From the sequence record NC_027395.1: a stretch of 64,000 nt of DNA. The stretch is one strand, 5' to 3'. This document shows positions 15,301 through 58,333 of this stretch, one piece after another. Each line of letters starts with the position of its first letter. Position 1 is the first letter of the stretch. Both the position numbers and the translations under genes were made by a program. The notes under the pieces are model-generated. The model searched no databases and was not told where the DNA came from. It saw nothing but the letters and a program-made list of their open reading frames with translations. This stretch comes from Escherichia phage vB_EcoP_SU10.

Positions 15301-16768
15301 CAAAGCTAACAAGAACTCTCAGTACGAAGCTGCTGCTAAGCATTTACAGGCTCGTGAAGAACGTCTTGCTACCCTCAGGAAAAAGGCTCAGGCTCGTTCG
15401 GATGCTAAGGCTGCTGTTGAGAATGAACGTAAAACTCTAGAGGCTATTGCAGCTCAGAAGAGTGAGATTGAGAAGATGATGGAAGGTTTACCTAAACCTG
15501 TTCGTGAGGCTCAGGAATCTCGTACTCTGAAACAGTTGGCTGCTCACCACGATAAGAACTCTCCAGTTCCTCCAGAGAAGTTCCGTAGTTATATTGAACG
15601 TATCCACAATGCCGAGTCAGATTACCTTGATCGTCAGCGTCGTTTAACTGATGCAGAGGAAGATGCTCGTCAGGCTAAGTGGAACAAGATGTATGAGCAA
15701 GCGGAAGAGATGAACCGTAAGTTTGATGTGGACAAGAGAGTTAAGCGCAGTGAAGAGCTTAAAGCGGCCCAAGAGCGTGAGAATGATCTTATGGCAGTAC
15801 AACGTCAACGTGATGACATTCATCGCCGCCTGATGCGTACTATGGAAGATAAGGGCATATCTAGAGAGGATGCTGAAGCGTTTGCCGGCTCCTATATGGA
15901 TAACCGTTATGCACTTCTTGAGAAACCTATGACTCCGACTGAACATCAGAATGCTCGTTCTCGTATCGAAGCTGATGTTGAGAAATTCGCTAAGAAGTAT
16001 GAATCAATGACTCCTATTGAGAAAGAGATTGTTAAGGTTACTGGAGATACTGAAGGTAAGCTTGATAACTTGGATGCGGATACTAGGAAGGCTATTGAGG
16101 AGGCTCAGAAGGTTGACTCTGATATTAAGAAACTGCAAGAGGAAGAATTGGAGATGGAGAAGATTCGTTCTGCTCTGCCTGATGATGAAAAATCTCAAGC
16201 AAATTCTGATATCTTGGAAAGCATTAAACAACAGGAAGAGGTCTTTGCTGATAAAGTAGAGAAAGCTTTCTTGAGTGGGAAAAGCTTGGATGAGTTGGCT
16301 AGTGTGGCTGAAGTTTTAGACAGGGTTCATGGTGCAGATAAGGCTGGTAACAACCGTCGCTTTGTACGTGCATTGCAGACTGCTGCTGAAAACAAGAAGA
16401 AGTATGGTGATAATCCAGTAGCTTGGTTTAGTGCTGATGATTACTCTGCCATTGCTAAACTTGGTGCTTCTTCCGCAGGTGGTAACAAATCCAGAGCACT
16501 GGAGAAGATCTTTGGTTCTACAGCTGAACAGGCTAAGAGTAAGTTGCTTGGTAGGGATGATGTAGCGAAGATGAGACGTGTGATTGAAGAGAACCCTGAT
16601 ATTAAGATTCCTTCTTACAAGACAACGAATCGTACTGAGTACTTGCAATTCTTGGAGAAGTTTAATGACGAAGGGAAGCCGAAGATTAAACGTGGCTCAT
16701 TGTCAGAGAAGCTTGAACGAAGTAAGCGTCAATCGAGACTCCGTGTAAGAGTTCGACCTAAGGAGTGA
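12347..16768 (+). CDS. large coiled-coil virion protein (internal core/ejection or tape-measure-like)
   Basis: 1474 aa from MANIKPWEEA with RBS AAAGGAGA; Ala/Glu/Lys/Arg-rich heptad-like sequence throughout; last gene of + module. Confidence 0.5.
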   Translation: MANIKPWEEASKAPAYLNASPEQQAQMREQYKAAGGSIPEEQPVAQPQQEERGAIGEFAQGVSNALQSGGANIAASAAKGIGGLVEIGENLAGAQTSYGKRIQENSQNLLKERMDKIEDGIGKTVGQYAGVAGDIGMTVANPLAAAAIIAGRETGRAYADQTPEEGEDKSILDAALVGGANYAAQRILPGAVGTAESTLGRIGQNVASNAVAGAKGGALVGAAEVQNKYGDDNDLAKTLEGVIEEGAMGAAFGGAVGGVHGLISRPDSVVFKNTPEYAKTDIAADDELIRSAKNVDELKEAYSKAETANAASALNLLDENGFRITDAVAVDSPAAQRILNTDQARAEKAASVQKEHSNIPGLNPLASPAKTRGKAFADNEHNQKQAVAMKDAMADYTKDNTKALTDVLDNLDRELTSLRASGDFTGSPIDIKNRTQADRDFIDAYKTFYNEANRFKAREGEDFNNFVEKAAELQKMADNVSPEMKKAIGGLKKLKGMPEGFNPIQDAYTLNNTAKFMSNQDRGWTSLTDDGFREASSPSLVMNTLGAAKYALNRFSSQRARSQRVKQQESNSEAIRSLARGDLEVARAKSTANEARAKMEEEPAVDDIKFKTQNDVETEPVREPSSSTVTEENLPSSAPQETPLTARDLVAQRRAIRQAEQRRAEEEAAAAQEVPVEQAPQAEPLPARNPLEERRAMEQQRAQEEASQAPEPTVEEPTVKAEPLPARAPKAPKEAVQDVKPASGVERLAAMSSAARQATKDRAERFARSLYSKAAKAKATAENFLAYKGDPKELMRRIRQEDNAINTERHEEMARNQLASQQGIATAKNNTVRTSFAEWVKERGLPEDIATKALRAEEKGLGGNVTNLDSLKRRAERLYQKQREDEFDRLYQQALEENKAFDKKDAPKLVDQKKELQSEIDALIDSEPLRPAQKDAMRKLMNDFVDGKFKSSEKAGREEALEVGQMKDIWDGFINTYNREVNAFNKANKNSQYEAAAKHLQAREERLATLRKKAQARSDAKAAVENERKTLEAIAAQKSEIEKMMEGLPKPVREAQESRTLKQLAAHHDKNSPVPPEKFRSYIERIHNAESDYLDRQRRLTDAEEDARQAKWNKMYEQAEEMNRKFDVDKRVKRSEELKAAQERENDLMAVQRQRDDIHRRLMRTMEDKGISREDAEAFAGSYMDNRYALLEKPMTPTEHQNARSRIEADVEKFAKKYESMTPIEKEIVKVTGDTEGKLDNLDADTRKAIEEAQKVDSDIKKLQEEELEMEKIRSALPDDEKSQANSDILESIKQQEEVFADKVEKAFLSGKSLDELASVAEVLDRVHGADKAGNNRRFVRALQTAAENKKKYGDNPVAWFSADDYSAIAKLGASSAGGNKSRALEKIFGSTAEQAKSKLLGRDDVAKMRRVIEENPDIKIPSYKTTNRTEYLQFLEKFNDEGKPKIKRGSLSEKLERSKRQSRLRVRVRPKE

Positions 16769-16776
16769 TAAAAGAA

Positions 16777-16808
16777 AAGCCCTCGAGGAGAAATCCAAGA
16801 GGGCTTTA
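16777..16808. terminator. bidirectional terminator at the junction of convergent modules
   Basis: AAAGCCCTC ... GAGGGCTTT inverted repeat flanked by A tract on one side and T tract on the other. Confidence 0.5.
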
Positions 16809-17131
16809 TTTGTTTCTAAGTTTTAAAAACCATCAAATTCGTCATACATCCCAATTTTCTTCAGAAGTCTGGATGTTCATCTTCAAAACATCCTGAGATG
16901 CCTCCGTAGAACCAATCTGATTTACTGCCAAGAATAACAACTTCTTCATTCATATAATCTCCTAGATTGTGTTTATAAAATTAATAAGTTTCTCTTCACT
17001 TTCATCAAAAGCTTTTCCAGCTGCTTCCATCTCCCAAGTATTGGCATTGTCAATAAAGCTCTGAGCTTCTAATAGATCGTGGATTAAGTCGAAGAGTTTA
17101 TTTTTATCTGTTTGTGTGATCATATCAGTTC

Positions 17132-51220: not shown

Positions 51221-51532
51221 CTATTTAAGTTTGAGGCTAATATTAAGGTGCATACATGCCCTGTTCTGTACAGCAGCATAACTTCTACCAAGCATGTCAG
51301 CCATTCTCTGAATAGACATGAACCCAGCATTACGGATAAGGAACTGGTCTTCTTCTTTAGACCACTTAACTCGGATTGAAGCTCTTGATATTCCGAATTT
51401 AGTGCAAGCTGTGTTAACTGCATTCTCCGTTACATTCATAATCTGAGCAACTTCTTGAACCGAGTACTCTTTGATTAGTCTCCGAAGATTTTCAATCTGT
51501 ATAGGAGTCCATATAGTTCTTCGTGCTTTCAT
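51221..51532 (-). CDS. DNA-binding regulator with duplicated helix-turn-helix
   Basis: Internal repeat SVQEVAQIMNVTENAVNTA / SIQRMADMLGRSYAAVQNRA. Confidence 0.5.
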   Translation of the reverse strand: MKARRTIWTPIQIENLRRLIKEYSVQEVAQIMNVTENAVNTACTKFGISRASIRVKWSKEEDQFLIRNAGFMSIQRMADMLGRSYAAVQNRACMHLNISLKLK

Positions 51533-52027
51533 ACATCCTCCAGTTAATTGTTAAAATTATCAGGGGAGTACACTAGCTCTGGGCCACGCTGTAGATATCG
51601 GCCTACCTTCCACAGCTAATCAGCTAATGTACTCTCCTAATAGTTTATGAATAGGGGGAGGGGACGAATCCTCCCTTATCCTATTAATTAATATTGCATG
51701 TAAGATCTAACAATCGGTTGCCTTTGTAGGAATAGGTGTAAAGCCAATCCAGCACTAAACTCCCGCCCCCTTAGTGGGCTGGGTTATTAAAGGGTAACGC
51801 CCTTATGGGCTAGTTACATGAATGTTAGTTTGATAGGAGATCTGAAGTCCTATCTCAAAGGACTCTCGTAAGAATCCTTCACGATATTACTTATTCATTT
51901 TTCGTCGGCTATCTCTCCAAGCCAACCAAGTGTAGGTTTTCAACTCTTCTAAACTTTCTGGAGTGAATAGGTATTCTTTGAAGGTGTCACTAAACCACTC
52001 TAAAAATTCTTCAGTCATAATAACATC

Positions 52028-53328: not shown

Positions 53329-53404
53329 TGGTGCGCCCTACAGGACTCGAACCTGTAACCAATAGCTTAGAAGGCTACTGCTCTATCCATTGAGCTAAGA
53401 GCGC
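53329..53404 (-). tRNA. tRNA-Arg (anticodon UCU)
   Basis: Hand-folded cloverleaf: acceptor GCGCTCT/AGGGCGC, D-arm GCTC-AATGGATA-GAGC, anticodon loop CTTCTAA, T-arm ACAGG-TTCGAGT-CCTGT, encoded CCA. Confidence 0.8.
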
Positions 53405-58231: not shown

Positions 58232-58333
58232 CTTTGATTAAATTCTTTGATTAATGCACTGAATCAATGCACTGATAAAAGAAAAGGCGCTACCCATTAA
58301 GATAGCGCCTTATGTTTATTCAAATTGTCTTAC

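Follow-up and report, generated by a model that had tools for sequence, protein, structure and literature searches.

Results

A long inverted repeat in the early region of a Kuravirus

The sequence analyzed here is a 64-kb stretch (64,000 nucleotides) of Escherichia phage vB_EcoP_SU10 (NC_027395.1), referred to below as the window. The region around the palindrome described here is 97% identical to Escherichia phages ES17, myPSH2311 and their relatives, which are Kuraviruses (phiEco32-like podoviruses of the Gordonclarkvirinae). According to the list of open reading frames and the annotation of ES17, the local genes all lie on the minus strand and are part of the Kuravirus early gene cluster, the layout of which has been described (PMC8948821). 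The palindrome is located within a 354-nt non-coding gap (51533-51886) between two minus-strand reading frames (Table 1). The 103-aa product of the downstream frame matches the Pfam model Sigma70_r4_2 at 1.6e-7 together with weaker helix-turn-helix (HTH) models, and the protein is annotated as "transcriptional regulator, D5-like" in ES17 and phiEco32.

The first-pass annotation of this DNA had placed the palindrome at 51563-51636, with two 15-nt arms separated by a 44-bp spacer. The left arm, GGGGAGTACACTAGC, is found at 51563-51577 as described, but the right arm, GCTAATGTACTCTCC, occupies 51623-51637 and not 51622-51636, and the spacer is accordingly 45 nt long. The sequence confirmed both the 13/15 complementarity of the arms and the presence of an inner inverted repeat, GCTGTAG (51588-51594) and CCACAGC (51610-51616), of which six of the seven positions pair, or all seven if G-U is allowed on the minus strand. 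Pairing of the arms is also wider than first noted, and extends over 24-nt arms (51555-51578 and 51622-51645) that are complementary at no fewer than 20 of 24 positions.

An inverted repeat of the 13/15 class with a spacer of at most 60 nt is not rare by itself: the window holds 10 clusters of such repeats, compared to 2.8 +/- 1.7 in dinucleotide shuffles. The 24-nt repeat with at least 20/24 complementarity occurs once in the 64-kb window and in none of 30 shuffles. Folding of 51555-51645 in the minus-strand sense yields -39.1 kcal/mol (z = -5.3), a value equalled by 0 of 200 shuffles, while the plus strand yields -31.6 kcal/mol (z = -4.0). Two other inverted repeats in the window, 16767-16816 and 58273-58322, both start with GATAAAAGAAAAG and continue into a hairpin rich in GC; in the minus-strand sense both resemble intrinsic terminators (a hairpin plus CUUUUCUUUUAUC).

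The remainder of the non-coding gap has a minimum free energy z-score of -3.0 on the minus strand and is approximately 97% conserved across all Kuraviruses. The hairpin GAUAGGA..UCCUAUC (51832-51854) within it reads GAUAAGG..CCUUAUC in UE-S5b, a compensatory change. A second hairpin, GGGAGG-N8-CCUCCC (51654-51675), is positioned directly upstream of the palindromic element in the RNA sense and is common to all Kuraviruses and Gamaleyaviruses. The annotation of phage 4E8 marks this hairpin as a terminator and also as a promoter. In the minus-strand sense it lacks a U tract. This part of the gap may contain further structured RNA modules.

Table 1. Features of the non-coding gap and its borders, with the parts of the element listed in the 5' to 3' direction of the minus-strand RNA
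Feature	Position	Strand	Description or basis
43-aa ORF	51887-52018	minus	other border of the 354-nt gap
Remaining non-coding gap (context)	51646-51886	minus	hairpin-rich; kept in all Kuraviruses and partly in Gamaleyavirus tRNA regions
Whole element	51555-51645	minus	long hairpin RNA module: helix P1, asymmetric internal loop, helix P2, 13-nt loop
P1, 5' strand, AACUAUUAGGAGAGUACAUUAGCU	51622-51645	minus	includes the right arm as first annotated; sequence, covariation
5' junction strand, GAUUA	51617-51621	minus	near-invariant; invariant in the 19-sequence seed
P2, 5' strand, GCU (P2a) then GUGGA (P2b)	51609-51616	minus	covariation
Loop L2, AGGUAGGCCGAUA	51596-51608	minus	13 nt, consensus RGGNNGGYCGAUR; seed alignment
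P2, 3' strand, UCUAC then AGC	51588-51595	minus	alignments
3' junction strand, GUGGCCCAG	51579-51587	minus	near-invariant; invariant in the seed
P1, 3' strand, AGCUAGUGUACUCCCCUGAUAAUU	51555-51578	minus	includes the left arm as first annotated (51563-51577); sequence, alignment
Shine-Dalgarno GGAGG of the regulator gene	51537-51541	minus	
103-aa HTH regulator gene (context)	51221-51532	minus	downstream of the element; ORF list, Pfam

Covariation supports a conserved RNA fold

Alignment of the window sequence with related copies from other phages revealed the common layout 5'-P1 - GAUUA - GCU - [5 bp] - RGGNNGGCCGAUR - [5 bp'] - (0-4 nt) - AGC - GUGGCCCAG - P1'-3'. A covariance model built from the 19-sequence seed (R1) matches the window end to end at 51555-51645 on the minus strand with a score of 89.6 bits and an E value of 6e-19. 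The model detects one copy per locus searched, no extra copies in the window, and none in phiEco32. P1 is generally at least 14 bp long and reaches 24 bp, with mismatches, in the window copy. Its 14 innermost pairs covary in all lineages, and the outer extension is confined to the copies of Kuravirus and Gamaleyavirus. P2 is an 8-bp inner helix. Its 3' strand is free of bulges in the window copy, while other copies carry 1-4 extra nucleotides.

The arms of P1 are unrelated in sequence between lineages yet are still complementary. Examples are GGAGAGUACAUUAGCU in the window, UCUGCCGCUGCGUG or UCUGGAACCCGGUU in Ackermannviridae, UUUGCUGUUUGAUU in Efbeekayvirus, and UUUAGAAAGCACAUUGUGU in an uncultured lineage. 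The MAFFT alignment of the 19 seed sequences has 86% of its cells paired, a share that falls to 32-42% once the 3' partners are shifted by 1-3 columns. Both sides have changed in 23 of the 34 pairs, and the observed covariation score was reached by 0 of 500 shuffles. RNAalifold, applied to an independent MAFFT alignment of 27 distinct sequences, recovered the same P1 and P2, with compensatory changes at 19 of 24 pairs. In P2b, where every cell is paired (100%), four of the five pairs show double changes; versions of this 5-bp inner stem include GUGGA/UCCAC, GAGGA/UCCUC, AGGGG/CCCCU, GUGAG/CUCAC, and GCAGG/CCUGC. In P2a, GCU/AGC is replaced by GUU/AAC in two groups of copies whose P1 arms are unrelated.

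In contrast to the stems, the 43-nt core has approximately 30 positions that are the same in all seed sequences. Within L2 the GG..GGCCGAU positions do not vary in the seed, and the sole variant observed is GGUCGAU. The variants seen for the 5' junction strand are AAUUA (phage NC-B) and GAUUG (a Dickeya phage), with no others, and that of the 3' junction strand is GUGACCCAG, a single case in Dickeya phage RC-2014. The retention of invariant loops while the stems drift suggests sequence-specific recognition by a factor common to the hosts of these phages.

In the RC-2014 copy (L148, 1496-1587), GAUUA has become GAUUG and GUGGCCCAG has become GUGACCCAG, two core changes that are coupled. In this single lineage the coupling could reflect a tertiary contact between the two junction strands. 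Pairing of the loop GGCCG with the junction UGGCC, which would form an H-type pseudoknot, was also considered. All five pairs are invariant in the seed and thus provide no covariation; the GGUC variant is compatible with it through a wobble pair, and the Dickeya G-to-A change breaks one pair. We do not propose an intramolecular GGCC:GGCC pseudoknot, as it shows no covariation and is sterically doubtful beside the covarying P2a. With a linker of only 1 nt after P2a, simultaneous formation of both would be unlikely on geometric grounds, especially in the bulge-less window copy.

Distribution among phages

A BLAST search with the intergenic region matched its first ~117 nt, which include the palindrome, in only a subset of Kuraviruses. 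It also returned N4-like phages, which belong to an unrelated family. phiEco32 and most other Kuraviruses align only from window position ~51647 onward. A 111-nt query centered on the palindrome returned 48 GenBank phage records, belonging to Kuravirus, to Suseptimavirus IME267, and to the Schitoviridae genera Gamaleyavirus, Kaypoctavirus, and Efbeekayvirus. Searching IMG/VR with the exact pattern of the palindrome's spacer, CTGGGCCACGCT..ATCGGCC, located 20 loci with the full element, most of them in genomes of ~157 kb that BLAST assigned to the Ackermannviridae. Carriers in this family include Det7, Vi01, CBA120, Ag3, Limestonevirus, and Taipeivirus. A 161-nt Ackermannviridae query containing the element matched 312 records, and in 110 of these the match covered at least 80% of the query. 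The Ackermannviridae copies are unannotated and lie beside tRNA-Tyr. A degenerate core pattern added 13 further metagenome contigs. The lineage comprising L013, L154, L157, and L160 has no cultured relative, which was demonstrated directly for L013. Judging by these alignments, the element is one copy of a strongly covarying RNA family that spans at least three phage families as well as one uncultured lineage.

The core pattern had no match in 185,579 bacterial and archaeal species genomes, and BLAST of the element against 5,426 complete E. coli genomes likewise returned none. A host origin or carriage by prophages was rejected on these grounds, and the absence of the core from both sets argues for a phage-borne effector and not a host gene or prophage element. 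The looser pattern ATCGGCC..AGCTAATC returned, beyond the known loci, random GC-rich matches only.

The element occupies a tRNA-type slot

Across 46 loci, all 129 tRNAs called by ARAGORN are on the strand of the element and none is on the opposite strand, a result that is partly trivial because the neighboring genes run the same way. In UE-S5b and KP8 the element is found inside a tRNA gene cluster. Efbeekayvirus-type loci have the order tRNA-Asp, 2 nt, element, 8 nt, tRNA-Pro; in many Ackermannviridae the element ends 6 nt before tRNA-Tyr; and on one metagenomic contig it starts 8 nt after tRNA-Ser. The only canonical tRNA that ARAGORN identifies in the 64-kb window, tRNA-Arg(TCT) at 53329-53404, lies 1.7 kb upstream of the element and, like it, on the minus strand.

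The element is tRNA-sized and sits in a tRNA-type slot, but is not a tRNA. A tRNA or pseudo-tRNA was rejected, as ARAGORN makes no call at the element and cmscan gives no tRNA match at 51555-51645 at E values up to 10. At the same limit no family of Rfam 15 overlaps this interval. A scan for sigma-70 promoters and terminators detected nothing resembling either at the element in the minus-strand sense. An intrinsic terminator was also rejected: beyond the negative scan, the 3' flank on the minus strand is UUUUAACAAUUAAC, and a 43-nt structured interior takes the place of a short loop. The copies of L011, L012, and other Ackermannviridae consist of a 14-bp stem followed by ...AGA-CCA-AAU and preceded by CAAAU. 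These ends recall an acceptor end that carries an NCCA tail and has U at position -1, as in minihelix substrates of RNase P. The Kuravirus and Gamaleyavirus copies have no CCA-like tail.

The polarity of the fold was assessed from G-U pairs. The well-paired helices contain 41 cells that are G-U in the minus sense and eight A-C cells, which would be G-U on the other strand, although these counts are not phylogenetically independent. Single-sided substitutions in the close relatives 1-6af and ES17 preserve pairing only in the minus-strand sense; 1-6af, for example, has a U-G pair in P2a and an A-U pair where the window has G-U. The Ackermannviridae copies L005 and L009 contain transitions that favor the opposite strand. 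Because of these transitions and the non-independence of the counts, we regard the minus strand as well supported, but not proven, as the folded strand. The distribution and sequence of the copies suggest that the element is probably a module passed horizontally between virulent phages of enterobacteria, in which it usually resides in tRNA gene arrays.

A mosaic locus in Kuraviruses

Comparison of Kuravirus genomes revealed four configurations of the locus, with the regulator gene present in all of them. In 4E8 the regulator gene is followed by a 35-nt spacer. phiEco32 carries an extra 73-aa ORF, phi32_100 (no Pfam match), at the position of the element (L004, 1230-1451). The window, ES17, and related phages carry the element of ~92 nt, and 1-6af and some others carry the element plus ~300 nt that include a tRNA-like sequence. 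Relative to 4E8 and phiEco32, the element is thus a ~92-nt insertion between the small ORF and the regulator gene. The flanking non-coding spacer is homologous to the tRNA region of Gamaleyavirus. By these comparisons the Kuravirus locus is a mosaic hot spot.

The ~300 nt of 1-6af, between the regulator gene and the element (L151, 2181-2496), also share homology with the tRNA region of Gamaleyavirus. Within them is a T-arm and acceptor end resembling those of a tRNA (GGTTCGAATCC...ACCA, minus strand), which ARAGORN does not call. From its sequence this may be a decayed or non-canonical tRNA.

Discussion

A covarying fold, a bias towards one strand, a setting in tRNA arrays, confinement to phages, and occurrence independent of the regulator gene together indicate that the palindrome is probably the DNA image of a structured small RNA module that is processed from a precursor and acts in trans through its invariant loops. 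We infer transcription, excision, stability, and action in trans from genomic context and conservation. Some Kuraviruses would have acquired the module in their early region by horizontal transfer that also brought in flanking non-coding sequence. There it would be transcribed within a polycistronic minus-strand early transcript, and elsewhere within a tRNA precursor, and the nucleases that process its neighbors would cut it out as a stable RNA of about 80-90 nt. In tRNA arrays, RNase P acting at the 5' end of the next tRNA and 3'-end trimming of the previous tRNA would free the element; for the window copy, RNase III or RNase E could act on the 24-bp stem. The released RNA would then bind, through the invariant loops, a protein or RNA factor common to Enterobacterales hosts. 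As a side effect, the regulator message of the window phage could acquire a defined 5' end, capped by the hairpin, 22 nt before the start codon of the gene.

The core could instead be conserved for a role in cis. The element would then be purely an RNA processing or stability hairpin, an entry site for RNase III or RNase E or a protective stem-loop, that has no function in trans but punctuates early or tRNA precursors and determines where the downstream message (the regulator mRNA in the window) begins and how stable it is. T7 early mRNA is an established case of long RNase III hairpins between cistrons. Like these, the element is a long imperfect hairpin with an internal loop; in the window it lies between early cistrons with a 24-bp stem that contains internal mismatches and ends 22 nt before the regulator ATG, and at every locus it lies between cistrons or tRNAs. 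In the phiEco32 relative 7-11, a hairpin before the sigma-factor gene has been proposed as the cause of either transcript processing or stalling of reverse transcriptase (PMC8948821). Despite these points we consider a purely cis-acting hairpin unlikely. Such a hairpin has no need for ~30 invariant unpaired nucleotides across families with fully diverged arms, and the element differs from the T7-like hairpins in having loops that are sequence-invariant across families, a stem of 14 bp in many members, and tRNA arrays as its usual context. At least 20 bp of mostly paired dsRNA, or about two turns, is present in the window and Gamaleyavirus copies (24 bp, 20-22 paired), but not in the Ackermannviridae and Efbeekayvirus copies, where P1 is only 14 bp. 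This length is short for RNase III. In tRNA arrays, moreover, RNase P and 3' trimming already separate neighbors that are 2-8 nt away.

A function at the level of DNA, as a hairpin or cruciform site for a mobile-element enzyme, the target of a homing endonuclease, or a replication or recombination signal, could explain the patchy, horizontally transferred distribution. The mosaic Kuravirus locus with its four configurations and the movement of the element between unrelated phage families together with flanking DNA fit such a site, and the T4 tRNA region contains the homing endonuclease gene segB (T4 annotation; PMC2330249). Sites read by proteins keep the sequence of their arms, however, and here only complementarity is kept. 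The tolerance of G-U pairs is strand-biased, the element fits precisely into tRNA-sized slots with the polarity of the tRNAs, and no endonuclease or transposase gene is consistently adjacent at the annotated loci inspected. A DNA-level element is in our view very improbable.

The first-pass annotation had proposed a candidate autoregulatory operator. On this reading the regulator, as a dimeric tandem-HTH protein, would bind both arms and control its own transcription. An HTH gene is directly downstream and the element has the dyad symmetry expected of HTH repressor operators, but its arms are unconserved and its spacer is conserved, the opposite of a protein-binding palindrome, and the operator is therefore not supported. 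Even ES17, 97% identical overall, has three changes in the arms, and in other families the arms are wholly different around the invariant spacer. Nor is the element tied to the gene: phiEco32 and 4E8 keep the regulator without the element, and in the Ackermannviridae and N4-like Schitoviridae the element is in tRNA arrays with no regulator annotated beside it at the loci inspected, which further argues against an operator. On the minus strand the sigma-70 scan detected nothing promoter-like near the element, and HTH dimers do not typically bind 15-bp half-sites that lie 45 bp apart. Little credence remains for autoregulation through this site. The accompanying suggestion of a structured leader was partly borne out, as there is a conserved RNA-type fold on the strand of the gene, but this fold belongs to an autonomous module and not to a leader specific to the regulator.

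Least credible is a pair of divergent promoters for the phage sigma factor gp36, read from TAATGTA in the right arm and an imperfect mirror of it in the left: the candidate TAATGTAct (51625-51633, plus strand) matches seven of nine positions of the phiEco32 middle/late consensus tAATGTAtA (PMC4331800), given elsewhere as AATGTA centered at -11.5 (PMC12276001), but is not among the one-mismatch matches in the window, which are themselves at chance level (20 found, 20.2 expected), lies on the strand antisense to the early genes, reads TAATATA in ES17 and TAATGCA in UE-S5b, is absent from the Ackermannviridae copies, and is not at any of the mapped gp36 promoters, which are upstream of genes 6, 13, 26, 40, 58, and 68 (PMC4331800).

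If the element is a processed RNA module, its kind is already known: it is a non-tRNA passenger of a phage tRNA operon. The T4 genes rnaC and rnaD (species 1 and 2 RNAs) are co-transcribed with tRNAs and trimmed by the tRNA-processing machinery, and we know of no function for them. Both they and the element are small non-tRNA RNAs arranged head-to-tail with tRNA genes, on the same strand and a few nucleotides apart; the element is embedded in tRNA arrays with spacings of 2-8 nt, and the window itself keeps only one tRNA. The T4 RNAs are 119-139 nt long and rnaC has a tRNA-like T-arm, whereas the element, at ~80-90 nt, forms a hairpin interrupted by an internal loop. With filters off, the best match of R1 in the T4 tRNA region scored 12.9 bits (E 0.1) and was outside rnaC and rnaD, indicating no homology. 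By analogy, then, rnaC and rnaD are the closest functional counterpart, through shared genomic logic.

A second resemblance is to bacterial Y-RNA-like or tRNA-like small RNAs (YrlA) and to further hairpins cleaved by RNase P, among them the 4.5S RNA precursor, which likewise have an end-to-end stem closing a conserved internal loop and an association with tRNA-type processing. The Ackermannviridae copies terminate in an acceptor-end-like ...GGCAGA-CCA. With these molecules, as with the T7-type hairpins, the element has only single features in common. Unlike YrlA-type RNAs, the element has no T-arm-like module and no Rfam match. Resemblances to 5S rRNA loop E, SRP RNA, class-II tRNA D-loops, rrn boxA (in the 3' flank), K-turns, and CsrA GGA sites were rejected, as these motifs span at most ~8 nt and are not conserved across the family.

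Our literature searches (core strings; Ackermannviridae, Kuravirus, and tRNA-cluster RNAs) found no description of the element. A paper on svsR in Kuravirus infection proved unrelated to it. A catalogue derived from IMG/VR lists 10,006 anonymous candidate structured RNAs identified by covariation, including tRNA-like candidates (Fremin et al. 2023, PMC10690425). The element may be among these 10,006, which carry neither a name nor a function. It appears that no description exists of this family, its breadth, or its invariant core.

For the window, these results remove a tempting but wrong annotation, the operator of an HTH gene. With the covariance model and the core pattern, the element can be annotated in hundreds of genomes, and it provides a concrete target for functional work. 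Its DNA appears to have moved between three unrelated families that include therapeutic-candidate coliphages and phages of Salmonella and Klebsiella. Phage tRNA arrays are now being reinterpreted as devices for counter-defence and translation takeover, and a non-tRNA RNA with ~30 invariant nucleotides is an obvious unannotated candidate effector among them. We tentatively raise the possibility that the element represents a new and widespread class of phage ncRNA, a tRNA-array passenger whose invariant loops form a binding or catalytic core. It might act as a decoy or inhibitor of a conserved enterobacterial RNA-handling factor or of a tRNA-targeting defence nuclease, or constitute a new small aptamer or ribozyme fold. 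If this is true, Ackermannviridae, N4-like, and phiEco32-like phages would be exchanging the module for an advantage at the level of the host.
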